Positions 6,163 through 63,205 of a stretch of 64,000 bases of DNA are shown here, piece by piece; position 1 is the stretch's first letter, and every line of letters starts with the position of its first letter. The stretch covers positions 1-64,000 of the IMG/VR virus record IMGVR_UViG_3300045988_101018. One strand, 5' to 3'. A program made the translations under genes and the position numbers. This DNA comes from a virus. A model generated the notes under the pieces. It saw only the letters and a program-made list of their open reading frames with translations. It did no database searches and was not told the origin of the DNA.

Positions 6163-7368
6163 GTGAATTTACATAAAGGCGAATCTGAAAATCTAGAACA
6201 ATATATTTGGAGACTTGGGCAAGCCAAGGAATCTGGAATTATAGATATGAATTGGGACGAACTGGCCGATATCATTAACAAGGAAATCGGCAATGAAGAT
6301 ATGCCTTATACTTCCTCGGCATTTAGAAAACCATATCAGCAGGCAAAAAAGTTTTATGATGCTGGTGTGTTTAATAAATATGACAATGATGAATATCTAA
6401 AAGAATTGCAATCTCAAAAACAAGAACTTGAGAAGCAGCAAGTTAAGGTTCGTGATGAGCGCAATGAACTTCGTAGGATGATTCGTGAACAGGCGCGAAA
6501 AGAAAGCTACAAAGAGCAAATCATAAGAAGCATTTCTGAAAGCGACTGTCACCCACTTTTTTATGATGAAGACAAGAAGTTCACTGGCTCTTTAAAGTCG
6601 GATAATGATATCGTATGCACTTTCTTTGATGTGCATACTGGTATTGAAGTAGATAATTATTTCAATAAGTTTAATAACGATATTTTGCGAGATAGAATTA
6701 ATCAATATCTTGATAAGATTTTTGAAGTTCAGTTACGTCACGGTTCAGAGAACATCTATGTCATTCTAAGCGAACTCATCTCTGGCTTCATTCATAATAC
6801 TATTAGAATTGAAAATAATCAGAACATCATTGAGCAGTTTTTAACTGTTACAGATTATCTGTCTCAGTTCTTAACAGAGTTAAGTTATAGATTTAATACT
6901 GTAAATGTGTATGTAAGCATGGGCAATCACTCCCGTCTTTCTCAGAATAAAGATGAGAATTTGCGTGGAGAAAATATGGACTTGCTTGCTATCCCCTATC
7001 TCAGTGCAAAGCTACAGAATTTTAAAAATGTAGTATTTCACGAAAACGATATTGAATGCAGCATTGCTATATTCAATGTTCGCGGACAGATGATATATGG
7101 GGTGCATGGTGATCGCGATAATCTAAACAACATGGTTCAGAAGCTAACTATGTTTACTGGTAGAAAGCCAGATATTATTTATTGTGGTCATAGACATACG
7201 AATGCAATGGTTACATCTTATGATACAAAGGTTCTTCAGGCTGGTACGTTTGCTGGTGGCGGAGATGAATATTGCTTAGATAAAAGGCTTAGAAACAAGC
7301 CAGAGCAGTTGATTTCCGTGATAACAGAAGATGGGCTTGATTGTATTTACGATATTAAATTTAAATAG
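6163..7368 (+). CDS. Calcineurin-like metallophosphoesterase (Mre11/SbcD-like fold) with an N-terminal coiled coil
   Basis: Motifs D-x-H (FFDVHTG), GNH (MGNHSRL), GD (GVHGDRDN) and GHxH (CGHRHT). RBS GAGGAGG before a GTG start. Confidence 0.5.
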   Translation: MNLHKGESENLEQYIWRLGQAKESGIIDMNWDELADIINKEIGNEDMPYTSSAFRKPYQQAKKFYDAGVFNKYDNDEYLKELQSQKQELEKQQVKVRDERNELRRMIREQARKESYKEQIIRSISESDCHPLFYDEDKKFTGSLKSDNDIVCTFFDVHTGIEVDNYFNKFNNDILRDRINQYLDKIFEVQLRHGSENIYVILSELISGFIHNTIRIENNQNIIEQFLTVTDYLSQFLTELSYRFNTVNVYVSMGNHSRLSQNKDENLRGENMDLLAIPYLSAKLQNFKNVVFHENDIECSIAIFNVRGQMIYGVHGDRDNLNNMVQKLTMFTGRKPDIIYCGHRHTNAMVTSYDTKVLQAGTFAGGGDEYCLDKRLRNKPEQLISVITEDGLDCIYDIKFK

Positions 7369-7398
7369 TTTGTTTGAAGAAAGGTGGTGTAGTGTCGT

Positions 7399-8412
7399 AT
7401 GGCGGGAAGAACAGCTAGAAAAAATGATGACTCCACTTCGACACTGCATTGTGCTTGTTGTGGTAAGGAGCTTAAGTCAAAAGATTTTTATAAATCAAAT
7501 AGTGACTTATATGCTTCATATGGAAAGATGCCGTGGTGCAAAGAATGCATTAATAAAATTTATTATAATTATTTAAACGTATATAAAACCAACGGATATG
7601 CAAACCCAGAAAAAAAGGCCGTTGAGCGAATATGCATGTTTTTAGATGTATATTTTTGCGATGATGCATATAATGCCACTGTTAAAAGAATGGAAGATGG
7701 CGATTTAACATGCTCTCTCATATCTTCTTATATCTCGATTTCACCACTTAGACAGTACAGAGGTGGTTATGATAGAACGTTAGAAGAAAGATATAATGAA
7801 GCAAAGTTTAATAATAAGCCCATATCTATATATTCAGATGACGATTCTGATATGAACGAAACCATAGACAAGGCGATAAAATTATTTGGCAATGGTTTCG
7901 ATAATGATGATTATATCTTTCTTTACAATGAATATTGTGACTGGACTACTAGACACGAGTGCAATACAAAAGCCCAAGAAGAGGTTTTTAAGCAACTGTG
8001 TTTTAATCAGCTTGAGTTGTTAAAGGCGACCAGGGCAAAGCAGGATACAAAGGATTTGACGGCTACATTCCAGAAGCTTCTTGACACAGCTAAATTGCAG
8101 CCGAAACAAAATTCTGGTGATGCCACATCTGATAGCCAAACATTTGGCACACTTATTGATAAGTGGGAAAACACAAGGCCGATTCCAGAGCCAGAAGGTG
8201 ATTTGAAAGATGTTGATAAAATAGGTCTTTACATTGACACATTTTTTCGTGGACATCTTGCAAAGATGATGGGTTTAAAGAACGGGCTTTCAAAACTCTA
8301 TGACAGATTTATGAAAAAGTATACCGTTGAAAAGCCAGAGTATGACGATGATGAAGACAACGAAGCTTTGTTTGATGCCATTTTTGGTGACACCGTTATG
8401 GATGATGATTAG
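7399..8412 (+). CDS. Hypothetical protein with an N-terminal Cys4 zinc ribbon and an acidic C-terminus. Possible small terminase by position only.
   Basis: CACCGK...CKEC near the N-terminus. C-terminal 'YDDDEDNE...DDD'. Sits immediately upstream of the terminase. Confidence 0.25.
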   Translation: MAGRTARKNDDSTSTLHCACCGKELKSKDFYKSNSDLYASYGKMPWCKECINKIYYNYLNVYKTNGYANPEKKAVERICMFLDVYFCDDAYNATVKRMEDGDLTCSLISSYISISPLRQYRGGYDRTLEERYNEAKFNNKPISIYSDDDSDMNETIDKAIKLFGNGFDNDDYIFLYNEYCDWTTRHECNTKAQEEVFKQLCFNQLELLKATRAKQDTKDLTATFQKLLDTAKLQPKQNSGDATSDSQTFGTLIDKWENTRPIPEPEGDLKDVDKIGLYIDTFFRGHLAKMMGLKNGLSKLYDRFMKKYTVEKPEYDDDEDNEALFDAIFGDTVMDDD

Positions 8413-22932: not shown

Positions 22933-23412
22933 ATGCCGACATTTAGTTCAGCAGCCGAATTGAAGGCTTATATTTTAAGTAGAAGTTACACGGCTGTTAA
23001 TAAAGCTACCAATACAGCTCATGACATTCTTGAAGAAAAAGTTGATGCATTTTACGCAAAAGAGCCAATGTATTATTTAAGAACAGATAGACTTCGTAGT
23101 TCATTAACAAATCCAGTTGTGACTGGTTCTGGTAACGGAGTTGAAGGCGAAGTGCATTTTGATGAAGGCAAACTTGATTATAGACAAGGACTAGTACCAA
23201 TTAAGAACCCACCGCTTCCAAATGGTTATGAAGAAGGATGGGCTGAACATAGTGGTATAGATGTTTTAAATGCTGCAATGACTGGCGCTGCTGACAAATT
23301 AAATTGGACAAACGGTACTGCTATTTGGAATGAAAGCGTGCCAACACTTCGGGATAAAATGTATGATGAAATAAAAAAAGATTTGATTGCTGCTGGCATC
23401 CCAATTAGTTAG
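22933..23412 (+). CDS. Hypothetical tail protein of 159 aa
   Basis: ORF followed by a terminator. Confidence 0.3.
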   Translation: MPTFSSAAELKAYILSRSYTAVNKATNTAHDILEEKVDAFYAKEPMYYLRTDRLRSSLTNPVVTGSGNGVEGEVHFDEGKLDYRQGLVPIKNPPLPNGYEEGWAEHSGIDVLNAAMTGAADKLNWTNGTAIWNESVPTLRDKMYDEIKKDLIAAGIPIS

Positions 23413-23432
23413 GATGCCAGCTTTTTTATTTT
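23392..23432 (+). terminator. Rho-independent terminator: GCTGGCATCC...GGATGCCAGC followed by T7
   Basis: 10-bp stem plus 'ttttttatttt'. Confidence 0.6.
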
Positions 23433-23455
23433 ACACGACAAGAAAAGGAGCGTCC

Positions 23456-24109
23456 ATGAGTGAAGGAATTAGTGAAAATTATAAAGTTTATAAACACACG
23501 CTACCCGTGGATGTCTCTGGCAAACAAAACGACATGGTATATATTGGCATAACAAGAAAGAAAAACGTAAAACAAAGATGGCTTAGTGGTCGTGGATATG
23601 ATTATAACTTACATTTTTCAAGAGCAATACAAAAATATGGTTGGGATAATTTTAGACACGAGGTATTGTTTGACGGTTTAAGTAAAGAAGAAGCCGAACA
23701 AAAAGAGATTTATCTCATTGCTTATTATAATTCTACTGATCCGAATAAAGGATATAATGTTGATTCTGGTGGAAATTCAACTGGGAAGCATTCTGAAAAA
23801 ACAAAACAACTTATTTCTCAAAAAAATAAGGGTAGGATTCACACAGAAGAAACAAGAAAGAAAATGTCGATAAGTCATATCGGTGTTAAAAAAAGTGACG
23901 AAACTAGAAAGAAGTTTTCTGATGCAAAATCTATACCAGTTGTTTGTGTTGAAACTGGTGTAGTTTACAAATCTGCATATGAAGCAAGGGATATTTTAGG
24001 CATCAACAACAGTACAATATCGAAGTGTTGCAGAGGAGTAAATAAAACCGCTGGAAAGTTAGACGATGGTACAAAATTGCATTGGGAATATTATAAGGAG
24101 GTGGCATGA
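23456..24109 (+). CDS. GIY-YIG homing endonuclease with C-terminal NUMOD-like DNA-binding repeats
   Basis: 'VYIGITRK...' GIY-YIG core with R, E and N 'GYN' residues. Repeated 'T/S..KK.S...G' units at the C-terminus. Confidence 0.6.
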   Translation: MSEGISENYKVYKHTLPVDVSGKQNDMVYIGITRKKNVKQRWLSGRGYDYNLHFSRAIQKYGWDNFRHEVLFDGLSKEEAEQKEIYLIAYYNSTDPNKGYNVDSGGNSTGKHSEKTKQLISQKNKGRIHTEETRKKMSISHIGVKKSDETRKKFSDAKSIPVVCVETGVVYKSAYEARDILGINNSTISKCCRGVNKTAGKLDDGTKLHWEYYKEVA

Positions 24110-25134
24110 TGGTGCAAAAACGAAACACGTTTAGGAAAGTTATTACTAGTGAGGAATTAGACGCTCAGATTAATCCAGAGAACATTAAATTGGCGGATAG
24201 ATTTTTGAAAAATTTTGCCACAAAAAGATCTCCCAATTCTGTAATTAGTTATAGGTCAAATTTACGAATGTTTTTCACATGGAATTTACTATACAACAAT
24301 AATAAGTTTTTTGTAGATATTCGCAAGATTGAGCTGATGGACTTCTTTGACTATTGTGTCACTGAATTACATCATAGCTCAAACCGTTTCTGTCAAATGC
24401 ACAGTTGTTTATCTAGCTTTAGTTCGTGGATTGAGAATTATTTTGATGATGAATATCCACTCTTCCGCAATTTATTGCCGAAGATTGAGAAGCCAGTAAA
24501 AGAAAATGTTCGGAAGAAAACTGTTCTTCAAAAAGAAGATATCGATAAGCTTTTTGCTTATTTTGAAGAGAATGATATGTATCAAGATGCATGTCTTCTC
24601 GCTTTAGCCATTTCATGTGGAGCGAGAGTTTCTGAGCTTGCTAGTTTTACTACCGATTTGATAGATGAAGACAATACTGTATTTGATGGTCTTTTTCTTG
24701 AAACCACCAGAGAGATTAAAACCAAGGGTCGTGGAGTAAACGGAAAGATGCTTAAGAAGTATATTTTAAAAGATACTTTTCTCCCCCGCTATCATAAATG
24801 GCTTGAAATTAGAAAAGGAATCATGGACGAACATGGCAAGGAACATGATTTTATTTTTATAACAAAAGATGGCGATCCAGCAAGCGCAGATAGACTGCGC
24901 GATTGGATGTCTAGGTGGAGCGATGTTGTTGGTCAGCCATGCTACCCGCACAACTTCCGCCACTACAACGTATCCTTCTTGAAGCGACTTGAACTTGAAG
25001 ATGATTTTATCGTTTATCTTACAGGGTGGTCTGAAAGCACTGGTCATAGTATGGTTGCCATATACAATGATATGACTGCTAAGGATCGTAAATGGAAAAA
25101 TCTCGATAAATTGAAAGCTGCTGTTGAAGGGTAA
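24106..25134 (+). CDS. Tyrosine recombinase (phage integrase / Xer family)
   Basis: N-terminal SAM-like core-binding region. 'GARVSE' (box I Arg), 'HNFRH', 'H...Y' (MVAIYNDM). Overlaps the GIY-YIG stop (ATGA). Confidence 0.6.
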   Translation: MMVQKRNTFRKVITSEELDAQINPENIKLADRFLKNFATKRSPNSVISYRSNLRMFFTWNLLYNNNKFFVDIRKIELMDFFDYCVTELHHSSNRFCQMHSCLSSFSSWIENYFDDEYPLFRNLLPKIEKPVKENVRKKTVLQKEDIDKLFAYFEENDMYQDACLLALAISCGARVSELASFTTDLIDEDNTVFDGLFLETTREIKTKGRGVNGKMLKKYILKDTFLPRYHKWLEIRKGIMDEHGKEHDFIFITKDGDPASADRLRDWMSRWSDVVGQPCYPHNFRHYNVSFLKRLELEDDFIVYLTGWSESTGHSMVAIYNDMTAKDRKWKNLDKLKAAVEG

Positions 25135-54111: not shown

Positions 54112-54172
54112 TTCTCAACGTCTCTGTTTTTTATTAATAGATATCTAATGGAAAATAAAGACGTTGAGAAAT
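54112..54172. promoter_or_regulatory. 11-bp inverted repeat TCTCAACGTCT / AGACGTTGAGA flanking an AT-rich, promoter-like stretch
   Basis: Read directly, just upstream of the gene at 54197. Confidence 0.35.
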
Positions 54173-54196
54173 CAACATATTGAAAGGAGTGGTCGC

Positions 54197-55279
54197 ATGG
54201 CAGAAACAAAGTTTCTTGACAGCATCGGCTTAACTTATCTACTTGAGAAGATAAACGCGAAGTTTTCAAAGATAGGTCATAAACATACCAAGGCGGACAT
54301 TACTGACTTCGCACATGACCACGATGGGAGATATTATACCGAAACCGAAATCGACACAAAGGTTTCCGCGCTAAACTCTGCGATTTCTGGTAAGGCCAAT
54401 TCTTCTCATAAACACGCTGCTGCTGATATTACGTCTGTGAATGCTTCTGCCATTACAGGTAGAATTGCTGCTGCTAATTTACCTAGTTACGTAGATGATG
54501 TGCTTGAGTATGCTGGAACATCTAAATTCCCTTCAACTGGTGAAGCTGGTAAGATTTATACTGATACAACGACAAACAAGATTTACCGCTGGGGCGGATC
54601 GTCTTATGTAGTTATTTCAGACACTATTGCCTTGGGTGAAACCAACTCTACCGCCTACCGTGGCGATAGAGGTAAAACTGCTTATAATCATTCGCAGATT
54701 ACAAGCGGAAACCCACATAAGGTAACTAAGTCCGATGTTGGTCTTGGCAGTGTTGACAATACTTCTGACGCAAATAAAAGTGTTAAGTACGCCAAAAGTG
54801 CAACGGCTAACAACCCGATAAAAACAACAGGTACGGGCGCTGCATATGCGGCAATTGTTGATGGCATTACGGCTCTTACTATTGGTGTTAAATTTACTAT
54901 GGTGCCACATGTTACTAGTACCACTAGGGCACCAACTCTTAATGTGAACAGTCTTGGTGCTAAAAGCATTAGAATGAGACTAACAAGCTCTACTACGGCT
55001 ACAATTCAGCTTACAAGTGCTAGTTTCTTAACCGCCAATAAGCCCGTAAATGTTATGTATGACGGGACTTATTGGGTAATTGATGACTTTGCACAGCCTG
55101 ACGTAAACAGTCTATATGGCACTGTGCCGATAGAAAAGGTTCAAGCTCATATTGCAAACACTACAATTCACATCACTGCCGCTGAGCGTGCTAAGTGGAA
55201 TGCCAAAGCAGATATTACCATTGGCACTGCTGAACCAACTTCAAGTACGTCTGGAATTTTTTATATTCAGACAAATTAA
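54197..55279 (+). CDS. Tail-fibre protein
   Basis: N-terminus 'KFLDSIGLTYLLEKINAKF' is paralogous to that of 52599. Repeated 'HKH..AADIT' units. Confidence 0.45.
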   Translation: MAETKFLDSIGLTYLLEKINAKFSKIGHKHTKADITDFAHDHDGRYYTETEIDTKVSALNSAISGKANSSHKHAAADITSVNASAITGRIAAANLPSYVDDVLEYAGTSKFPSTGEAGKIYTDTTTNKIYRWGGSSYVVISDTIALGETNSTAYRGDRGKTAYNHSQITSGNPHKVTKSDVGLGSVDNTSDANKSVKYAKSATANNPIKTTGTGAAYAAIVDGITALTIGVKFTMVPHVTSTTRAPTLNVNSLGAKSIRMRLTSSTTATIQLTSASFLTANKPVNVMYDGTYWVIDDFAQPDVNSLYGTVPIEKVQAHIANTTIHITAAERAKWNAKADITIGTAEPTSSTSGIFYIQTN

Positions 55280-55979: not shown

Positions 55980-56006
55980 TTAAAAACTAAATACATAACC
56001 TTATTA

Positions 56007-56046
56007 GGGGTGTGAGTATTTCGCTTACGCCCCTTTTTATTTTTTA
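56007..56046 (+). terminator. Imperfect hairpin plus T-tract terminator
   Basis: GGGGTGTGAG...CTTACGCCCC followed by T-rich sequence. Confidence 0.45.
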
Positions 56047-56089
56047 TTATATAAAAATAAAAATTTGGAGGTGATTATATGGCATTACC

Positions 56090-56188
56090 ATACGTAAGCG
56101 TGTCAGCAAGCAGCTCTGGCAATAGATATATCACTGTGACTGGTAGGATGAACTGGTTCTTCAGCAGAATAAAATGATAATTTTAAAT
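56090..56188 (+). CDS. Possible 32-aa leader peptide
   Basis: Strong RBS GGAGGTG followed by ATG. Too short to assess. Confidence 0.2.
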
Positions 56189-56256
56189 AACAATTGAATA
56201 ATACGTGTACTGGGCATAGTGGGTTATTTATATTCTCCATGCCTTTGTTATCGAAC

Positions 56257-56270
56257 AAAAAAAAAAAAAA
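56257..56270. repeat. A14 homopolymer tract about 20 nt upstream of the start of the repeat-protein gene
   Basis: 'cgaacaaaaaaaaaaaaaatgaaaggcgg'. Confidence 0.8.
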
Positions 56271-56288
56271 TGAAAGGCGGTTGGTAAA

Positions 56289-57248
56289 TTGGCGAGTAAT
56301 AGCAATACTAAAAATAGCGGCAAGGGCGGCGTTACAACTGCGGTCAGCGCATGGTATGATAGCGAAACTGGGAATACAGTAAGACTTTGCATAAGTACGA
56401 GCGTTAAGGGAAGCTCTAATGGCCCGTGGGGCTATGGCGTAGTCGGGCAGTCTGGCTACGAAGGGAATGGAGCAAACTGGAAAGAGGTCGGTCGCGGAGT
56501 TTTTAACTATGCCAACACTGTCGTTAATGGTACAGCATATTTTACAGTCGGAAAAACCCATAGCGGATGGACTGCGAGCTGTTGGGCAAAGTCGTGGGGC
56601 GAAGCGGCTGGTGGATATGGCGCATACATTGCCAGCGATGATGTTCGCTGTAACGTATGGATCCCAGCAACGTCTAGATACACTCTTTCCTATAATGCCA
56701 ACGGTGGCTCGGGCGCTCCTTCGAGCCAAACAAAATGGCATGGCGAAACATTAACGCTCTCCTCTGCTAAGCCAACAAGAGACGGATATGAATTTGCTGG
56801 TTGGGGTACGTCTGCCACTGATACTGGCGTTAAATATGCTGCTGGCGGACAATATACAGGAAATGCAAGCATCACACTGTATGCTATCTGGACTAACGCT
56901 GCAAAGATGACTCTTGCATATAATGCCAACGGTGGCTCGGGCGCTCCTTCGAGCCAAACACATTTGATAAATACAACCTCTAAAATATCTGGTGCTAAGC
57001 CCACTAGAGACAAGTATGTGTTTTTAGGGTGGTCTACGAGCAGTTCTGCCACAAGTGCAACATATATCGCAGACGGGCAGTACACAAACAACAATTTTAC
57101 CAATGGCGCAACCGTCACGTTGTACGCTGTGTGGCTGAAGAAGAGTCCGAGTATATATATAAATTCATCAGAACATAGTTTCAAATCGGTTTGGGTAAAT
57201 GTGCCTTCTGGCAAGAGCCTTAAATCAATCTGGTTCAAGACTGGTTAG
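56289..57248 (+). CDS. Protein with two Listeria-Bacteroides-type repeats (InlB B-repeat-like)
   Basis: Two 70-aa units 'YNANGGSGAPSSQT...AKPTRDGYEFAGWGTS...YAIW'. TTG start. 42-bp identical DNA repeats at 56691..56732 and 56919..56960. Confidence 0.55.
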   Translation: MASNSNTKNSGKGGVTTAVSAWYDSETGNTVRLCISTSVKGSSNGPWGYGVVGQSGYEGNGANWKEVGRGVFNYANTVVNGTAYFTVGKTHSGWTASCWAKSWGEAAGGYGAYIASDDVRCNVWIPATSRYTLSYNANGGSGAPSSQTKWHGETLTLSSAKPTRDGYEFAGWGTSATDTGVKYAAGGQYTGNASITLYAIWTNAAKMTLAYNANGGSGAPSSQTHLINTTSKISGAKPTRDKYVFLGWSTSSSATSATYIADGQYTNNNFTNGATVTLYAVWLKKSPSIYINSSEHSFKSVWVNVPSGKSLKSIWFKTG

Positions 57249-57267
57249 TTGATGGGAGGTAATTGAG

Positions 57268-57627
57268 TTGGCTGACGAAGTTGAATTAAGTGAAGTTGAT
57301 TACAAGCTTAAATATACAGGCGAGGAAGTCGATAGTCTCCTTGCGTTTATAAAAGATTTTAAAAATATCTACAACAAGATGAAGCGCGTTCAGGCTGGAT
57401 GTGAAGCTATCTCTACGACTACGGCTGGTGCAGATGTGATTAAGGTTATAGATTTCAGTGTTGCCTTTAACGGTGTGCCGAATGTTATGCTCATACCTAC
57501 TTTTCTAAATGATAAAACGGCTAAGGCAAAAGTTCTTAATATCACGTCTTCTAATTTCAAGGTTCAGGTAGTAGGAAATGATAACGATGCCACAACCAAC
57601 TTGTATTGGATAGCTACTGAACAGTAA
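57268..57627 (+). CDS. Hypothetical protein of 119 aa
   Basis: RBS GGGAGGT with a TTG start. Confidence 0.3.
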   Translation: MADEVELSEVDYKLKYTGEEVDSLLAFIKDFKNIYNKMKRVQAGCEAISTTTAGADVIKVIDFSVAFNGVPNVMLIPTFLNDKTAKAKVLNITSSNFKVQVVGNDNDATTNLYWIATEQ

Positions 57628-57674
57628 ATCTTGTTTGATTATATATCAAAGTTTGAATGAAAGGAAGTAAAAAT

Positions 57675-58118
57675 ATGAGTTGGGTTAATCTTAATGATGT
57701 TTATGTAAATCAGACTGGCGGAACTATTGCTGGCGATCTATCTGTAAACGGCGCTTTGACGGTAAATGATGGCAAGGGAACGAACACCACATACAATGTT
57801 GCCAATGAAATTACAACGTTGCGGGATTCCGTATCCCAATGTAAACCGCAATATAAAATTTATGCTGGGTCGAGGGTAATAAACATCACACAATCTTGGG
57901 GTACGCTATTTACAAAAGACGAATTTATATCCTCTTTTGGACGCGAATTTAATAATTCAAGAGACAGCATATCAGTTATGAATGGAGATGCGAAAGCCAA
58001 CAATATTACCGTTTTTGGTGTTTCGTATTATCCACAAGACGGCAAGTTGCTTGTTGCATTATCGGCGAACGGCGGCGGTGCTTTTAGGATCAATTATATC
58101 GTAGTTCTTGCTGAGTAG
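57675..58118 (+). CDS. Shufflon-variable tail-fibre-tip protein, the expressed copy. Constant N-terminal part ends ...LRDSVS at 57837, followed by variable cassette 'e'.
   Basis: Contains the crossover repeat ATTCCGTATCCC in frame at 57826..57837. N-terminal 'QTGGTIAGDLSVNG' resembles the conserved tail-fibre 'TGGTMTG.L' motif. Confidence 0.6.
   Translation: MSWVNLNDVYVNQTGGTIAGDLSVNGALTVNDGKGTNTTYNVANEITTLRDSVSQCKPQYKIYAGSRVINITQSWGTLFTKDEFISSFGREFNNSRDSISVMNGDAKANNITVFGVSYYPQDGKLLVALSANGGGAFRINYIVVLAE
57826..57837 (+). repeat. Shufflon crossover site in the expressed gene (ATTCCGTATCCC on the + strand)
   Basis: Exact 12-mer within the coding sequence, encoding S-V-S. Confidence 0.8.
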
Positions 58119-58152
58119 ACGTTATTGGCATACGCATATAAGAAATCATGCG

Positions 58153-58472
58153 CTAGTTGATATACCATGAACAAATACCCCTGTTAATAGCACCAGATAT
58201 CGAAGCAGCAACTTGAAACCCAATTGCTCCGTTTGGATGGACATAGCCATATGCGCATACGTTGAGTATGTAGCCATTGGCATTTGTCACACATGATGGC
58301 GAATAAATTGTATGGTCTGGTCGAAGATTTTCTGGAATGACATGTTCTATTCCCCAATACTCATTTGTTGATTGAGAAACAGTCCATACGAGTATACACG
58401 TGTATCCAACACGCCGAATATGAACGTATGAGGAACTACCCGGCGCTCCGTATAGCACAAGCGTATCGTCTT
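58153..58472 (-). other. Silent C-terminal cassette m0 (HSVSQDDTLVLYGAPG...SWYIN*)
   Basis: Reads leftwards from site A in the same frame as the crossover repeat. Confidence 0.6.
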
Positions 58473-58508
58473 GGGATACGGAATGCTAAGTATGGGTTTC
58501 CGTATCCC
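58473..58508. repeat. Site pair A: GGGATACGGAATgcta (58473..), 13-nt gap, then TTCCGTATCCC (58498..58508), facing opposite directions
   Basis: Read directly. Confidence 0.8.
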
Positions 58509-58846
58509 TGACAAAAGACACATGCAAAGGAGCCAACGGCTGGGTTGTACAAACTGGCGCAATTACACGTACAGAAAATTGTGTAACCATGTGGGTAGAT
58601 GTTGTTGCTGGAAATAGCGCGAATAAGAATGTAAATACAACGTTTGCGACAATGCCGTCTGCTTTCGCGCCTAGCACATATAATATTGAACTTCCAGTAT
58701 TAGGGTTCACTACAACGTCTTATCCAATTAGCTTTTGGATAATAATCACTACAAGTGGAGAAATCAAAATTAAGCAATATGTACTACCGTCTAACACAGT
58801 TCTAGGCCAAATTAAATGTTGTTGTACGTATTTAAAAATTTAATAG
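58499..58846 (+). other. Silent cassette p0 (SVSLTKDTCKGANGW...CCCTYLKI*)
   Basis: Reads rightwards from the rightward-facing half of site A. Ends in tandem stops TAA TAG. Confidence 0.55.
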
Positions 58847-58859
58847 CATTCCGTATCTC
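58847..58859 (+). repeat. Degenerate site A2 (CATTCCGTATCTC, one mismatch), in frame directly after the stops of p0
   Basis: Read directly. Confidence 0.6.
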
Positions 58860-59221
58860 AGATTAAATTATTGTGGAGCGGGTCTGTGTACGGCGGCGGT
58901 TCATTTGTCGTACCAGAGCTAAAAGAATATACATTTGTAGAAGTGGTTACTTCAAATGCTGATGAAAATCATTGGGGCGTATTATGTTTTAATGACATGA
59001 ATGCATTAAAATCTACCGATGATGCATATGGCATGTGGGTATACGCAGATATACACGCTGGCTTGGATTACATAGTATCAATAAAATCAAAATTGGAAAT
59101 ACAGAAAGACTTAAAGACTGTGAAATTCACAGCTGGATATGCATTTAACGTAATGAAAGAAAACACCGTTATTACTTCAACGCAAAAACTTCGTATCGTT
59201 GCTGTGTATGGCGTTAGATAG
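58850..59221 (+). other. Silent cassette p0b (HSVSQIKLLWSGSVYGGG...VYGVR*)
   Basis: In frame from site A2. Matches the ORF-track entry at 58871..59221. Confidence 0.5.
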
Positions 59222-59227
59222 GCTGTA

Positions 59228-59565
59228 TTATAGATACAACATTCCAGATATCTTACGCACTCCATATGCATACATGCCGTTATAGTATGATGCATTTAAA
59301 GTCAGTTTTCCATCTGGGTCAAGCTCAACAAATACTGAAAATTGCGCAGAAAAATCTGCAACTCCTACAAAATATACATTTGTTTTTGGTCTATATTTTG
59401 ATGGCAATGATATGGACACTGACTTATATCCATTTCCACTTGCAGACATAAAGCCAGAAACCCTGTCACATATAACCTTTATCGCGTTTTGACTTGGAAT
59501 ATACACGACATTTATATCAAATGTTGCACCAACAAGGTCAACGCTATAGTCGCCAATTTTCTCTT
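59228..59565 (-). other. Silent cassette m1 (HSVSQEKIGDYSVDL...GMLYL*)
   Basis: Reads leftwards from site B. Confidence 0.6.
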
Positions 59566-59581
59566 GGGATACGGAATGCTA
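59566..59581 (-). repeat. Site B, GGGATACGGAATgcta. Its 'cta' supplies the TAG stop of cassette m2
   Basis: Read directly. Confidence 0.8.
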
Positions 59582-59889
59582 TTTTAACTTTCCTATAACA
59601 GTTTCCTGTACGTACATTCCTACATTAGACATAGATGTTGCAGATGAAAGATAGCATCTAACGTCTGTTACATTCTTAATTTCGACATAATGTCCAATCC
59701 ATAATCCATTTCCAGTGACGGGATTAACATCTGCATATAAGATAGAGTCGTATATATCAGGGGCGTTAAACGCATAAGAACAAAAGTACAATGAACCAAA
59801 TAGAGCTGTTGCAGAAATGGTTTTATGAACTTTTCTTGTTGACAGAGCATAGCCTATTCCAAAATTAAAAATAGTCCAATCTCCATTTT
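59579..59889 (-). other. Silent cassette m2 (YSVSQNGDWTIFNFG...IGKLK*)
   Basis: Reads leftwards from site C. Confidence 0.6.
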
Positions 59890-59905
59890 GGGATACGGAA
59901 TACTA
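59890..59905 (-). repeat. Site C, GGGATACGGAATacta
   Basis: Read directly. Confidence 0.8.
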
Positions 59906-59909
59906 GGTT

Positions 59910-60149
59910 ATTAAACTTCAATATAATAAACGATAACATTTATTTTTCTATTTGAATATTTCCCTGCGCTGCCGTCCCATGCCATAAGACGAACTGTTCT
60001 ACCCTGTTGTGCGTCAGTTCCCGTATGAAACGCATATCTCGCATCGTACATCCCACCAATTCCTATTGGAATCTGCCTTGCGTTAAGTCCCGTTTCGAAA
60101 TATCCATTAGGGTCTGTAGTTGTATCTATTTGTTTTGTTTTTATAATAT
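59910..60149 (-). other. Silent cassette m3 (NSVSHIIKTKQIDTT...YYIEV*), about 80 aa
   Basis: Reads leftwards from site D. No internal Met, so it is absent from the ORF track. Confidence 0.45.
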
Positions 60150-60186
60150 GGGATACGGAATTCCCATGTTTAGTATTCCGTATCCC
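60150..60186. repeat. Site pair D: GGGATACGGAAT (60150..60161), the spacer tcccatgtttagt, then ATTCCGTATCCC (60175..60186)
   Basis: Read directly. Confidence 0.8.
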
Positions 60187-60530
60187 AAATCAGTAATAGA
60201 GTATTGCTTTGGAGTGGAACGGCTGGCAAAGGTGTGAAAATTACGATTGACAGCGACTATTCATTTAAAGAATTCAAATCATTTTATTGCCTTACAAGTA
60301 TCGATAAAACAATCGGATTGCCGCTTGTAAGAAACTCTGGAATACAACAAGACCAGCATTTACACGGCATTACTGGATGGGATGATGGTAATACAACATA
60401 TACGCTTGTTGGGCTAATTAGAATAAATACAGAGACAACTGCGACCATTACGTCTATATCAAAACACGATATAAGTGGCAATGGTGGAATTGCTGGCAGC
60501 TTACTTAAACTATGGGGATGTTACTAATCG
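60177..60530 (+). other. Silent cassette p1 (SVSQISNRVLLWSGTAGKG...LWGCY*)
   Basis: Reads rightwards from the rightward-facing half of site D. Convergent with m4. Confidence 0.6.
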
Positions 60531-60865
60531 TTACTTCCACATGCCTTTGACGTTATATTCTATAAATGCCACTGTAGTAGTATTGTTATATTTTATATCT
60601 TGGTTTAACACATATACTCCAGTGTCTACTAGCCCAATAGAAGCTCCTGTACCAGATAATACGTAAACGCCCTTTTGTCCAGAGCTATATATTGCAGAAG
60701 CGCCCTTATACAATAAACTAGTTAAAGGAAATGGAAAATCAACAGCGGGTGCAGTAACACTACCAATCCCTTTTATTTCTTTTCCTCCCCAAAATTCTGC
60801 AAGACCGCTATTCCATTTGCGATAAAACCAGATTCCAGATGTTCCCTGTGCGACAATATAGTCGT
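60531..60865 (-). other. Silent cassette m4 (HSVSHDYIVAQGTSG...KGMWK*)
   Basis: Reads leftwards from site E. Confidence 0.6.
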
Positions 60866-60881
60866 GGGATACGGAATGCTA
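60866..60881 (-). repeat. Site E, GGGATACGGAATgcta. Its 'cta' is the TAG stop of m5
   Basis: Read directly. Confidence 0.8.
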
Positions 60882-61132
60882 TAACGGTATAGCAATCCAA
60901 TTTATAGTACATTGTATGTGTTGATATTCTTGGTGACTATTCCAAACGTCCATAGTAAACCCAGTTGATGTTTTGTTATACACCATTTCCGTAACAGAAG
61001 GCCATCCCCATGTTTCAATTTTTGGAAACTGAAGAGATGTGATAACAACATAATCTGTTTCGATTGGTGTATTAAATTTAACCTGAACAACGTTATCATT
61101 TATGTTTGTTGTCATGGTAACAACACCTCTTT
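60879..61132 (-). other. Silent cassette m5 (YSVSQRGVVTMTTNIND...IAIPL*)
   Basis: Reads leftwards from site F. Confidence 0.6.
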
Positions 61133-61169
61133 GGGATACGGAATACCCATGTTTAGTATTCCGTATCCC
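61133..61169. repeat. Site pair F: GGGATACGGAAT (61133..61144), the spacer acccatgtttagt, then ATTCCGTATCCC (61158..61169)
   Basis: Near-identical to pair D, including the spacer. Confidence 0.8.
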
Positions 61170-61504
61170 AGAGCGAATGGAAAGTCCTCAAGGGCAACAT
61201 CGGCTCCAACCATCTGGCGTACAAAATCTGCAATGGCATCTGCTATCTGAGCATCGATTGCGGCGGAGACTGGAGCATCAAGGCCAACGCGAAGTCCACT
61301 GTTGACATCATTACCATGCCAGACGAAGCATTGCCATCCACGTGGATTGTTTCAGCTGCTTGTTACCCAAAGGGCGGCAATTCAGACTTCGTTTGCGGTG
61401 TGACATTAAACAGGAAGACTAAGAAGCTATCCGTATGCAACTACTCGAACACGGCAACCAACTACTATTCCGTCACTTTCTGCTATCCAGTCAAAAATTA
61501 GCAG
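61160..61504 (+). other. Silent cassette p2 (SVSQSEWKVLKGNIG...CYPVKN*)
   Basis: Reads rightwards from the rightward-facing half of site F. Confidence 0.6.
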
Positions 61505-61779
61505 TTATATGACATTCTTTTTGTATAGAATTACGAATGTAATTTTAAAATCATGCCATGTGCCTTTGTTTGTTACCTCGTTATTTTGAATGCTTGCATA
61601 TGCAGTGTCGTTATCGCGCAGACCAAATTGCGTGATAATACATGAACCTGTGTGGTTTGACTTCACCGTGGTAAGGCATACAGGCGTATAGCCATCGTAT
61701 TTCACGCTGGTGTCAAAGTCGGCAACCGCGCCATACCTTAATGATTTGGCGGCAGACGTGAAGCTCTTTGTCGTGTACT
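61505..61779 (-). other. Silent cassette m6 (HSVSQYTTKSFTSAAK...KKNVI*)
   Basis: Reads leftwards from site G. Confidence 0.6.
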
Positions 61780-61795
61780 GGGATACGGAATGCTA
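61780..61795 (-). repeat. Site G, GGGATACGGAATgcta
   Basis: Read directly. Confidence 0.8.
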
Positions 61796-61797
61796 TG

Positions 61798-62090
61798 TTA
61801 AAAAATAACAAAGGTTGCCCTTACGCTTCTGTTGCCAGACTGTAAATATAAATATCCATTTTGATAATAGGCAGTTGCGTGTAGGCTTATGTCAGAAACA
61901 TAATAGCAATCTACACAATCGTCAGGCCGTGTATTATTTTTAATAAAATGAGATATGGGAAACACTGTAGAACATAGCGGTCTATTATTGTAAACGCATA
62001 TTAAACAACCCATTTTTGTTGTGGGTAAATTGACTTTAAATGATTCGTATGAAGTAGAACCGCTTGTTTTTGCCACCTCTACAGGAGCTT
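61798..62090 (-). other. Silent cassette m7 (DSVSQAPVEVAKTSGS...FVIF*)
   Basis: Reads leftwards from site H. Confidence 0.6.
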
Positions 62091-62108
62091 GGGATACGGA
62101 ATCCCCAG
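62091..62108 (-). repeat. Site H, GGGATACGGAATccccag, 6 nt from the recombinase stop codon
   Basis: Read directly. Confidence 0.8.
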
Positions 62109-63005
62109 TTAGCTTATAGCCCTTATTTTAGACTTTCTAGCTTTGTCGAATATCAGCTTCTCAACAGCCGCCTGAGCTTCTTGGCAGATTGTTTTACGAG
62201 GAACGATATAGTGATTATATGCTGTGCTAATCTCTGTATGACCAAGCATCATGGCAACGGTTTCGATGCCAACTCCTGCTTCAATTGCAAGTGTAGCCCA
62301 TGTATGACGCATGTTAGTCATAGATACATATGGTACACCCATCTTCTTACACTGTGACTTGATAGCACGAGCTGCTTTATCGGGAGATACATCACCGATA
62401 AGAAGCCCATGTCCTTTAATCTGCTTTAGGCGCTGACGTGCAAACTTAGGTAGATAGCAAGACCTAGTAGACTTTTCTGTCTTAGTTTTTACTGTGATGA
62501 TTTGACCGTTCACATATTGGCGCGACTTGCTAATACGCACCTCGCCAGTCTTAAGATTGATATCAGACCATTCGAGAGCGCAAGCTTCGCCACGGCGCAA
62601 ACCAAGAGTTACAGCACAGATAGTTACGGCTTCAGCCCAATGACCCCACATGCCGCGAAGCATCTCTGATACCTCTTGTGCGTCTAAAACATCTGGGCGA
62701 TAAGGCTTGGGGTGGTTTACTTCTATGTATGCGGTTGGATCGATAATATGTAGGCGCTTCTTGCGAATCCACCAACGGATGATTTGGCGAATACATTTAA
62801 ACGCTTTCTCTCCTGCGCCAGCTTTTTCAAATGAGTCTACCCACTCCTGCAAATCATCAGGGCAGATATCTTCAATCTCACATTCGCCCCATCGCGGAAG
62901 TACATGAAGACGCATTGATGAGTCGTATCCAGCTATGGTGGATGCCGCCATCTTCTGTGTTTTCTCGGGTAGATAATGCTGTTCATAGATGTCGATAAGT
63001 TTCAT
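62109..63005 (-). CDS. Shufflon-associated tyrosine recombinase (Rci/XerC-like)
   Basis: 'LRRGEACAL' (box I Arg), 'MRHTWAT' (HxxR), 'LGHTEISTAYNHY' (H...Y). RBS AAAGGA. Lies at the end of the repeat array. Confidence 0.7.
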   Translation of the reverse strand: MKLIDIYEQHYLPEKTQKMAASTIAGYDSSMRLHVLPRWGECEIEDICPDDLQEWVDSFEKAGAGEKAFKCIRQIIRWWIRKKRLHIIDPTAYIEVNHPKPYRPDVLDAQEVSEMLRGMWGHWAEAVTICAVTLGLRRGEACALEWSDINLKTGEVRISKSRQYVNGQIITVKTKTEKSTRSCYLPKFARQRLKQIKGHGLLIGDVSPDKAARAIKSQCKKMGVPYVSMTNMRHTWATLAIEAGVGIETVAMMLGHTEISTAYNHYIVPRKTICQEAQAAVEKLIFDKARKSKIRAIS

Positions 63006-63023
63006 TTTTTAAATCCTTTCATT

Positions 63024-63082
63024 GAAAAAATCCCACGCAATTTAACTCGAAATGAGTATATAACTTGCGTGGGATTTTTTCA
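63024..63082. promoter_or_regulatory. Perfect 18-bp inverted repeat TGAAAAAATCCCACGCAA / TTGCGTGGGATTTTTTCA with a 23-nt loop, in the divergent promoter region between the recombinase gene and the downstream gene
   Basis: Read directly. Confidence 0.5.
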
Positions 63083-63205
63083 ATGGTGCATATAAATTTA
63101 TTTATATATAAATTAAAAGTTCTACAATTTTGAATATTAGAAAACACATTTTATGTTACAATATTAACCATATTTATAAACTCTAATGACCAAGGAGGTA
63201 TGTCT

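Follow-up and report, generated by a model that had tools for sequence, protein, structure and literature searches.

The locus at 57675-63005 of the window, by which we mean the whole 64,000-nucleotide stretch of viral DNA that was analyzed, holds a small receptor-binding protein (RBP) gene, an array of silent cassettes in both orientations and, at the far end of the array, a recombinase gene. Its features are as follows.

57662-57669: Shine-Dalgarno-like AAAGGAAG, preceding the constant part
57675..57827, plus strand: constant part (Rc) of the small RBP gene, 51 residues, MSWVNLNDVYVNQTGG...EITTLRD, from the open reading frame (ORF) and its homologues
57823..57839, plus strand: expressed-locus crossover site (rix-like), GGGA-TTCCGTA-TCCCAA, encoding (R)D-S-V-S-Q
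57828..58118, plus strand: cassette e, the head expressed in the window, 96 codons with the shared SVS counted in, closed by TAG
58153..58482, minus strand: cassette m0, silent head convergent with e, 109 codons, no stop, reading SVSQDDTLVLYGAPG...; core 58473-58483
58498..58843, plus strand: site and silent cassette c3, 114 codons; core 58498-58508, left flank ATGGGT
58849..59221, plus strand: site and silent cassette c4, 123 codons; one-base variant core TTCCGTATCTC, synonymous
59228..59576, minus strand: site and silent cassette c5, 115 codons; core 59566-59576
59579..59900, minus strand: site and silent cassette c6, 106 codons; core 59890-59900
59911..60160, minus strand: site and silent cassette c7, 82 codons; core 60150-60160
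60176..60527, plus strand: site and silent cassette c8, 116 codons; core 60176-60186, head-to-head with the c7 site
60531..60876, minus strand: site and silent cassette c9, 114 codons; core 60866-60876
60879..61143, minus strand: site and silent cassette c10, 87 codons; core 61133-61143
61159..61501, plus strand: site and silent cassette c11, 113 codons; core 61159-61169, head-to-head with the c10 site
61505..61790, minus strand: site and silent cassette c12, 94 codons; core 61780-61790
61798..62105, minus strand: terminal site and silent cassette c13, 100 codons; core 62091-62101; its left arm, GGGGA, is symmetric, as at the expressed site
62109..63005, minus strand: shufflon recombinase, 298 amino acids, an arm-less, XerD-like tyrosine recombinase by Pfam and conservation
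63020..63085, minus strand: long hairpin with a 21-bp stem, just upstream of the ribosome-binding site of the recombinase gene and overlapping promoter-like hexamers

The RBP gene likely starts at ATG 57675 (MSWVN...), because every database homologue begins there. The constant part is common to the full-length homologues, all of which run from MSWVN, and in 109 of the 120 best database matches it is joined to varied heads. The sequence-only reading had the constant gene continue through S-V-S and Q into cassette e, and our ORF reading agrees: the expressed gene is ...EITTLRD-SVS-QCKPQYKIY...VVLAE, ending at 58118. The RBP itself had no match in Pfam, NCBIfam or PHROGs, the expressed protein gave a single weak tblastn match among phages (E-value of 2e-3), and a megablast search of 56000-63200 against 50,697 phage records found no match.

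Cassettes e and m0 lie between the two copies of ATTCCGTATCCCAA (57826-57839 and 58471-58484), which form a perfect inverted repeat of 14 bp. The stop codons of the two cassettes are 34 nt apart, and the segment has no second ORF. It had been proposed that m0 is a silent cassette convergent with e behind an opposed site, and the inverted repeat together with the 109 open codons of m0 bears this out. It had also been proposed that inversion would swap e for m0 in frame, with both crossovers inside coding sequence and the S-V-S-Q junction intact. Inverting 57832..58478 in silico gave a continuous ORF, of 166 amino acids from 57657 or 160 amino acids from 57675, with the junction LRDSVSQDDTLVLYG and with LRDSVSQ-DDTLVLYG kept; there was no frame break. 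Moreover, the alternative junction exists in public assemblies. Protein P0001 (160 amino acids) is 98% identical to the in silico inverted product across 100% of its length, and the human gut contigs L010 and L011 (ENA ERZ1026836 and ERZ27274173) are collinear with the window to 57839 and then run on with 58484->57826 in reversed orientation (97.6% identity); both breakpoints lie in the core repeat. The alignment breakpoints of natural inversion products fall inside the expressed-locus site at 57823..57839. No JGI metagenome contig was found with the exact reciprocal junction that a one-step flip would create on the backbone of the window itself. The segment is a real invertible DNA switch and the first unit of a 13-cassette shufflon.

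The crossover site recurs throughout the array. The 11-mer core TTCCGTATCCC (at most one mismatch) occurs 15 times in the window and 13 of these copies cluster in 57827-62101, against 0.42 expected and a maximum of 2 in shuffled sequences. Each of the 13 clustered sites leads into 82 to 123 open codons in the common TCC-GTA-TCC frame, counting the shared SVS, while an open run of 82 codons occurs at only about 14.5% of the window's random positions and frames. In the site, (T/G)(A/G)GnA-TTCCGTA-TCCCA, which encodes the linker D-S-V-S, an asymmetric spacer of 7 bp is flanked by imperfect arms of 5 bp. Its right arm, TCCCA, is invariant, and its left arm is TAGCA, TAGTA or GGGA; in the expressed site the GGGA mirrors TCCC of the right arm, and the terminal site forms a 17-nt perfect inverted repeat with the expressed site. 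Across loci, 81 unique sites give the consensus taG.A-TTCCGTATCCC-Aa, in which 100% have G at position -3 and 98% have A at position -1. This short core of about 15 bp is homologous to the rix site of Rin shufflons and is not of the gix type.

All eight one-step inversion products are continuous ORFs, and a symbolic search over inversion states reached eight heads by one inversion and the other four by two. The heads are 79 to 120 residues long behind the 51 constant residues, and most have no detectable similarity to one another. The lineage has at least 28 head families, and two or more different structures are predicted among the heads; the m0 head is modeled with a TP901-1-type RBP fold. 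Purifying selection acts on the silent cassettes, as 53 silent-silent pairs have a median dN/dS of 0.17. The TAG stop of c6 also belongs to the left arm of the site that follows, and the terminal site is 8 nt from the recombinase stop codon.

Many of the cassettes can be followed into other assemblies; among the matches listed, proteins from these join the constant part to at least 11 of the 13 window heads. The c3 site stands head-to-head with that of m0 (their cores are 14 nt apart), and c3 has homologues in L003, L008, L006 and L010. The c4 homologue is the expressed head in L003, whose constant part is identical to the window's, and in L030 and L035. Expressed forms were found for c5 (proteins P0056 and P0078), c9 (P0067 and locus L023) and c12 (P0088); c8 is expressed in L027-L029 and has the opposite orientation in L008. 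Homologues of c10 are oppositely oriented in L004 and L008, with no expressed form among the 120 proteins listed, and c11 had no homologue in the loci sampled. Cassette families are permuted in order and orientation across 10 loci and in 16 further human gut contigs. In L009 the e-m0 block is internal and inverted, and L004 and L007 are 97 to 99.7% identical yet rearranged at sites. Inversions between assemblies with breakpoints at the site were seen in L010, L011, L009, L003, L004 versus L007, and L020-L035.

Does the array move, or is it a static row of paralogous or decaying head fragments that differ between phages through rare homologous or illegitimate recombination or assembly chimeras? 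The evidence for flipping is comparative throughout, with rearrangement seen between assemblies; metagenome assemblers can mis-join at repeats; and the recombinase gene of locus L001 has two in-frame stops. Against a static array, the breakpoints always lie at the 11- to 14-bp core, which is too short for RecA-type recombination, the flipped state is identical in two independent assemblies, and the inversions are reciprocal with both cassettes retained. In addition, every cassette is open and under purifying selection, and a conserved recombinase always stands beside the array. Homologous Rin loci yield variants in prophage and virion reads (PMC6109161). Site-confined breakpoints, reciprocal products, selection and the conserved recombinase led us to reject this explanation, which we regard as very unlikely.

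The same rearrangements bear on nonreciprocal gene conversion of the Neisseria pilE/pilS kind, in which silent cassettes are copied into the expression site and do not themselves move. A single expression site and many promoterless silent cassettes with a common short conserved 5' element are what such a system would have. However, the displaced cassette is kept, inverted, beside the new one in L010, L011 and L009, and relatives differ in cassette order and orientation in just the way that inversions would produce. The homology common to the cassettes spans just about 15 bp, and a dedicated tyrosine recombinase is present. On the strength of the retained cassette, the inversion-like permutation and the recombinase, copying without movement was rejected as highly improbable.

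The recombinase consists of a SAM-like core-binding domain (PF14659, residues 9-58) and a catalytic domain (PF00589, residues 109-268, 2.2e-16) with no extra N-terminal domain, and R137, R233, H256 and Y266 are conserved. It is 92 to 99% conserved beside the array in related phages. More distant relatives are the enzymes of PMBT6 (34.5% identity, 9e-50), Siphoviridae ctl617 (38%, 8e-53) and Gordonibacter sp. An230 (45%, 3e-83), and enzymes from Bifidobacterium MAGs are 36 to 38% identical; the next best phage integrases reach at most 28% identity (E-value of about 1e-16). The PMBT6, ctl617 and Gordonibacter recombinases likewise adjoin arrays, with tagcTTTCCGTAACCC or gggaTTCCGTATCCC sites and cassettes that begin with SVT or SVS. 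The core TTCCGTATCCC is identical in the 66% GC Gordonibacter prophage locus, and PMBT6 and ctl617 differ from it by one base (TTCCGTAACCC). The hairpin at 63020..63085 (-36.5 kcal/mol, z of -8.2) may insulate or regulate the recombinase gene. For a second tyrosine recombinase (24106-25134) we found no inverted repeats tying that enzyme to another switch.

The sequence-only reading had likened the e-m0 segment to the G segment of phage Mu. The swap logic of that comparison holds, with the constant part outside, convergent C-termini inside and an in-frame crossover in coding sequence, and the array of L001, just two convergent cassettes, would also fit a two-state switch in which a serine invertase of the Gin type flips e-m0 alone at gix-like repeats and the other repeats are incidental. 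The family and the scale do not hold. The adjoining recombinase is a PF00589 enzyme, no resolvase or invertase domain was found in ten further ORFs tested (eight of them Gin-sized), and a tblastn search of the whole window with a Gin query had a best E-value of 2.9. Each of 13 equivalent sites leads into an open cassette, many of these sites are used in natural isoforms, and the segment has no U-like chaperone gene. A Gin-type switch is thus largely refuted by the tyrosine recombinase, the 13 sites and the absence of a serine invertase from the ORFs tested, and we give it next to no credence. The segment combines the swap logic of the G segment with a tyrosine enzyme and a rix-like site and is therefore G-like in its working and a Rin shufflon by family.

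Hence, the locus at 57675-63005 is very probably a Rin-type multiple-inversion shufflon in a large tailed phage of the human gut. We propose that the gene of a small receptor-binding tail protein has two portions, a constant N-terminal part of 51 residues and a replaceable head of about 80 to 120 residues, with 13 alternative heads stored in both orientations and each headed by the common short site. The recombinase encoded at 62109-63005, to which adjacency and homology point as the catalyst of the flips, would bring the site of the expressed gene together with an oppositely oriented site and exchange strands in the spacer, presumably within its 7 bp. The intervening DNA would flip and the constant part would become fused in frame to a new head, the e/m0 segment being the innermost flip. 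Sites in direct repeat, such as those at 58498 and 58849, would be expected to permit deletion, which is presumably suppressed. The heads probably set the host range, and the outcome would be a phage population that varies in receptor specificity.

The Rin shufflon was described in prophages of Bifidobacterium breve and Bifidobacterium longum, with the rix site TTCCCTAACCC (Mavrich et al. 2018, PMC6109161), and is also present in Eggerthella lenta clade 1 prophages, with the site ttccgtat (PMC8778435). The mechanism is therefore already described, and the window locus is an unusually large new example of it. As in the known loci, an arm-less tyrosine invertase lies at one end of the array and a constant Rc at the other, and promoterless Rv heads of about 95 to 120 amino acids stand in both orientations, each behind an 11-bp asymmetric core (TTCCCTAACCC, TTCCGTAACCC or ttccgtat there, TTCCGTATCCC in the window). 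They also share the junction peptide (L/F)(R/W)D-SV(S/T) and heads that are similar to the head of the TP901-1 RBP, and the recombinase is 34 to 45% identical to the PMBT6, Bifidobacterium and Gordonibacter enzymes; Bb423phi1 is likened to the window by its published description. The window differs in having 13 cassettes compared with 5 in Bb423phi1, and its constant part of 51 residues is unrelated in sequence to the 168-residue actinobacterial Rc. The carrier is also different, at 39% GC and with related contigs of about 130 kb, whereas the known actinobacterial prophages have 36 to 40 kb and about 60% GC.

The shufflon of R64 consists of the Rci recombinase, sfx sites and alternative pilV C-termini that set recipient specificity, and in its sites a 7-bp spacer separates a well-conserved arm from a poorly conserved one. 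The window locus shares with R64 and other IncI plasmids multiple inversion by a tyrosine recombinase, short sites in both orientations within coding sequence, and a constant N-terminus with alternative C-termini, and its site is likewise asymmetric, with a conserved right and a variable left arm. However, the target is a phage tail protein and not a conjugative pilus adhesin, and the site sequence is unrelated. Nor is the recombinase detectably Rci-like: a tblastn search against 72,556 plasmids (E-value of at most 1e-3) matched 358 records, mostly from Bacillus, Ligilactobacillus and Thermus, with no enterobacterial IncI group among them, and NCBIfam gave only subthreshold matches of the Xer and integron-integrase types.

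Gin of Mu, Cin of P1 and Min of p15B are serine invertases that act at gix, cix and mix sites with a Fis-dependent enhancer, which is not expected with a tyrosine recombinase, and with a co-inverted chaperone gene. Like the window locus, the Mu G, P1 C and p15B systems use inversion to vary the C-terminus of a tail fiber; the constant part lies outside the inverting DNA and the variable parts converge within it. The Min system of p15B has several crossover sites and many isomers (PMC6109161), and so does the window locus. The differences are that the window enzyme is a tyrosine recombinase, that the searches of the window turned up no serine invertase and that the cassettes are single head domains. 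BV01-like phages of Phocaeicola vulgatus have a tail fiber shufflon with the site TGGGAGAACT and three cassettes that give six variants (PMC13596623). This, too, is a phage-encoded, recombinase-flanked multicassette shufflon; it overlaps the distal end of a tail fiber gene and has isoforms in gut samples (PMC13596623). By its published description, the BV01 system differs from the window in its site, its three cassettes and its Bacteroidota host. The GuFi-phage preprint contains no description of the window system.

The lineage of the window phage occurs in many human gut assemblies. Its portal is similar to those of SPbeta-like Firmicutes phages, and the lineage probably infects Firmicutes. 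A degenerate pattern of the constant part plus site had no match in the collection of genome contigs, the endolysin and other Pfam matches gave no pointer to the host, and no tRNA genes were found in the window.

The value of the locus lies in its scale and context, that is, 13 heads on a 51-residue stem with dozens of isoforms in public data. It suits the study of how one phage covers many receptors and of how an arm-less tyrosine recombinase prefers inversion over deletion, and it offers a compact modular scaffold for swapping RBP heads. Where the shufflon goes unrecognized, the RBP gene of the lineage and host-range predictions would be misassembled or misannotated. We consider it quite possible, if somewhat short of probable, that the Rin recombinase, its site and the D-S-V-S linker encoded by that site form a portable "socket" that moved between prophages of high-GC Actinobacteria and these unrelated 39% GC gut phages, which have related contigs of about 130 kb and probably infect Firmicutes, was grafted onto a different, minimal RBP stem of 51 residues and grew into the largest phage receptor-protein shufflon so far. 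If so, RBP heads would be exchanged by a natural plug-and-play scheme.

Since 13 crossover sites and 13 open cassettes lie here, the segment at 57826-58508, which the sequence-only reading had taken for a Mu G-segment-like switch between the expressed head cassette e and the silent cassette m0, is the innermost unit of a larger array. The likeness to Mu held for the convergent pair and its in-frame inversion, but the pair is only the first part of a 13-cassette array and the enzyme is a tyrosine recombinase. The cassette description and coordinates of that reading proved correct when we re-derived the gene, m0 and the repeat:

57657/57675 to 58118, plus strand: receptor-binding protein (RBP) gene, product ...NVANEITTLRDSVSQCKPQYKIY...IVVLAE*
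58482 to 58153, minus strand: cassette m0, SVSQDDTLVLYGAPG..., 109 codons, stop-free
57826-57839 and 58471-58484: perfect 14-bp inverted repeat ATTCCGTATCCCAA, common to both junctions

The RBP gene likely starts at the ATG at 57675 (MSWVN...), because AAAGGAAG precedes it and every database homologue begins there. Cassette m0 is convergent with this gene, with 34 nt between m0 and the stop of the gene. Inverting positions 57832..58478 in silico gave the predicted in-frame swap, a single unbroken ORF of 160 aa from ATG 57675 with no frame break, in which LRDSVSQ is joined to DDTLVLYG.

Does this inversion occur in nature? Among 5.8 billion proteins, the best match of the in-silico product of constant part plus m0 was P0001, a database protein of 160 aa (98% identity, 100% coverage) with the same constant part as in the window and the junction LRDSVSQDDTLVLYG. 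Its gene is present in L010 and L011, independent ENA assemblies that therefore contain the alternative junction that had been predicted. Both are collinear with the window to 57839; from there they run through window positions 58484 to 57826, inverted and 97.6% identical. At either end 13-14 nt are covered by both alignments, which places both breakpoints inside the core repeat. Judged by its sequence, this arrangement is a natural reciprocal product of e/m0 inversion. A search of the metagenome contigs did not turn up the exact reciprocal junction as it would read on the backbone of the window itself. In L009, a 130.5-kb IMG/VR contig with a flank about 96% identical, the e-m0 block is internal to the array, both cassettes are silent, and the orientation of the block with respect to the recombinase gene is reversed.

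The core 11-mer TTCCGTATCCC (at most 1 mismatch) is present in 15 copies in the 64-kb window, 13 of them within 57827-62101, while shuffling gave an expectation of 0.42 copies and a maximum of 2. These 13 sites point both ways:

57827, 58498, 58849, 60176 and 61159: rightward sites (n = 5)
58473, 59566, 59890, 60150, 60866, 61133, 61780 and 62091: leftward sites (n = 8)

Out of all 13 sites the frame TCC-GTA-TCC (S-V-S) leads into an open cassette, 82-123 codons long, which runs almost to the next site or cassette; as few as 82 codons are open at only ~14.5% of random position/frame picks in the window. A single in-silico inversion with the expressed site produced an unbroken ORF for 8/8 leftward sites. 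A symbolic search over inversion states showed that four rightward cassettes require two inversions and that more than 260,000 arrangements are reachable within four. The recombinase gene (62109-63005, minus strand) has its stop codon 8 nt beyond the end of the array.

Alignment of 81 unique sites, drawn from the window and from loci related to it, yielded the consensus t-a-G-n-A, TTCCGTA and TCCC-A-a, in this order, with G at position -3 in 100% and A at position -1 in 98%. By analogy with the way core sites of tyrosine recombinases are usually built, we infer two 5-bp arms flanking an asymmetric 7-bp spacer, TTCCGTA, with the left arm an imperfect mirror of the right. TCCCA, the right arm, is invariant, and at internal sites the left arm reads TAGCA or TAGTA. 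At several head-to-tail junctions the TAG of this left arm also terminates the cassette before it. The outermost two sites (the expressed one and the recombinase-side one) have a better-mirrored left arm, (C/G)GGGA, and form a 17-nt perfect inverted repeat between them.

The gene at 62109-63005 encodes a tyrosine recombinase of 298 aa (PF00589, 2.2e-16) that has a SAM-like core-binding domain at its N-terminus, lacks an arm-binding domain and gave only sub-threshold Xer-type matches in NCBIfam. R137, R233, H256 and Y266 are invariant in the alignment with its relatives, and the gene adjoining the array in related phages is 92-99% conserved. No serine invertase was found: ten further ORFs (eight of them Gin-sized) contained no resolvase domain, and a tblastn search of the whole window with a Gin query sequence gave a best E of 2.9. 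Directly upstream of the recombinase ribosome-binding site, a hairpin at 63020-63085 (21-bp stem, -36.5 kcal/mol, z -8.2) contains promoter-like hexamers at 63083..63055 (10/12 matches) and is a possible insulator, terminator or regulator for recombinase expression.

Scans with the constant part plus site recovered 8 viral and 16 metagenome contigs, and all metagenome contigs with a source in the record name came from the human gut. The heads behind the common constant part differ among these contigs. The order and orientation of homologous cassette families vary across the window, L003, L008, L009, L004, L006 and L007; between L004 and L007, segments that are 97-99.7% identical are rearranged with junctions at sites. 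Of the best 120 protein matches, 109 have a head joined to the constant part through the LRDSVS junction, and these heads fall into 17 clusters. They include the expressed form of 11/13 window heads and none of c10 or c11. The window's phage lineage holds at least 28 head families. Orthologous cassette pairs silent in both members have a median dN/dS of 0.17 and a maximum of 0.44 (53 pairs); hence, the stored cassettes are kept by selection, which implies that they are used.

In L003 an identical constant part is joined to a homologue of the window's silent c4, which is expressed there from a canonical core. The c4 site in the window (58849-58859) has the right-arm variant TTCCGTATCTC, with a synonymous Ser codon, and this variant may reduce c4 usage in the window phage. 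Other loci show irregular forms. In L001 (IMGVR_UViG_3300045988_109861) the shufflon recombinase gene (6847-7743) has two in-frame stops, W39* and Q278*, and a convergent pair of cassettes is all that is left of the array; the locus resembles a G-segment-like remnant that has decayed and is possibly frozen. In L005 and L032 the constant part is present in two tandem copies, each with its own expressed-type site. An internal site at L007 10601-10650, with the constant-part-like left flank ATGCGGGA next to a truncated 28-codon cassette, looks like a scar from aberrant or duplicative recombination within the array.

Tyrosine-recombinase shufflons on phage tail proteins are already known from Bifidobacterium and Eggerthella prophages. 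The Rin shufflon of Bifidobacterium prophages was described as the first tyrosine invertase system encoded by a phage; it has a constant part (Rc) of 168 residues, five variable cassettes (Rv) of 95-100 residues, the 11-bp crossover site (rix) TTCCCTAACCC and an arm-less, XerD-like enzyme, and its variants were found in prophage and virion reads (PMC6109161). Eggerthella lenta prophages have a Rin shufflon with the rix ttccgtat (PMC8778435), and BV01-like phages have a recombinase-flanked multi-cassette tail-fibre shufflon (PMC13596623). The top relatives of our recombinase in the phage collection are Siphoviridae sp. ctl617 (38%, 8e-53) and Bifidobacterium phage PMBT6 (two records; 34.5%, 9e-50), followed by ordinary integrases at no more than 28% identity and about 1e-16. 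In ctl617 and PMBT6 the recombinase gene lies in the tail module, adjoining small unannotated ORFs, and is flanked by 3-8 copies of tagcTTTCCGTAACCC plus one copy of gtgggaTTCCGTAACCC within a longer gene; an in-frame SVT... cassette of 87-118 codons follows each site copy. A profile search of species-representative genomes identified Gordonibacter sp. An230 as the nearest relative (45%, 3e-83), with Bifidobacterium MAGs next at 36-38% identity. The Gordonibacter prophage locus (L014 8890-10170, NZ_NFJP01000002.1; 66% GC) has gggaTTCCGTATCCC sites, whose 11-bp core is identical to the window's and which lead into SVSQ/SVSR cassettes, adjoining the 45%-identical recombinase. Because the core is translated, the linker peptide is fixed: (R)D-S-V-S in the window, FRD-SVS in Gordonibacter, and LWD-SVT in both PMBT6 and ctl617. 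Ahead of this linker, the constant parts are otherwise unrelated and are of different size, 51 residues in the window versus about 170. A Rci-type system was rejected, the recombinase giving no enterobacterial IncI signal against 72,556 plasmids.

As every defining feature of the Rin family that could be tested is present, the window locus is very probably a Rin-family shufflon. It differs from the published systems in features that are new: 13 heads rather than the five of Bifidobacterium Rin, a minimal stem unrelated in sequence to the Rc of actinobacterial systems, a large low-GC gut phage as carrier, unlike known Rin carriers, and a core shared with a 66% GC prophage. That the core is identical despite the differing GC suggests that the module is under strong constraint or was transferred horizontally. 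The literature covered, which was incomplete, contained no account of a Rin-type system in large low-GC gut phages.

The window has 39% GC; its genes include those for an exonuclease, terminase, portal, tail proteins and a protein with an endolysin-like domain, and contigs related to it measure about 127-131 kb. The portal shares ~30% identity with portals of SPbeta-like phages and other large siphophages of Firmicutes, and the groups named in an 81-record summary include no Actinobacteria phage. Relatives with a stated source come only from human-gut metagenomes. The host is presumably a low-GC Gram-positive bacterium. Another tyrosine recombinase is encoded at 24106-25134 (PF00589 2.1e-15), sharing 4 nt with the end of the gene for a NUMOD3-motif protein (23387-24109), and the pair lies within the structural module just upstream of a 3383-aa gene. 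No inverted repeats linked to this recombinase were found, and it could be the phage integrase or an inserted mobile element.

The RBP gene closes the tail module, behind these genes, in order:

a 2395-aa tail protein, then 54164-55279: fibre-like protein (phage tail-protein family matches)
56289-57248: Listeria-Bacteroides-repeat protein, two repeats (PF09479, 1.2e-21)
57268-57627: H-type-lectin-domain protein, 119 aa (PF09458, at threshold)

The latter two, directly upstream of the RBP gene and collinear in L010 and L011, probably encode additional tail components that bind carbohydrate and are not subject to switching. The gene at 56289-57248 is the first past a strong terminator (56006-56034), and 14 consecutive A (56257-56270) lie just upstream of its ribosome-binding site and TTG start; this run is possibly a slipped-strand tract affecting expression of the operon with the RBP gene. 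The m0 head is predicted to have an RBP-head fold, with adenovirus fibre knobs ranking next among the fold matches.

We propose that the adjacent tyrosine recombinase would flip DNA lying between oppositely oriented cores, and that a flip using the 57826 site would place a new head on the small RBP, the e/m0 swap being the simplest of such flips. Presumably, the 62109-63005 protein catalyzes the reaction by strand exchange inside TTCCGTA, and deletion between direct sites is suppressed. The switch would also be timed and regulated, with whatever part the hairpin upstream of the recombinase start may have in this. The heads that it presents are presumably linked to host range.
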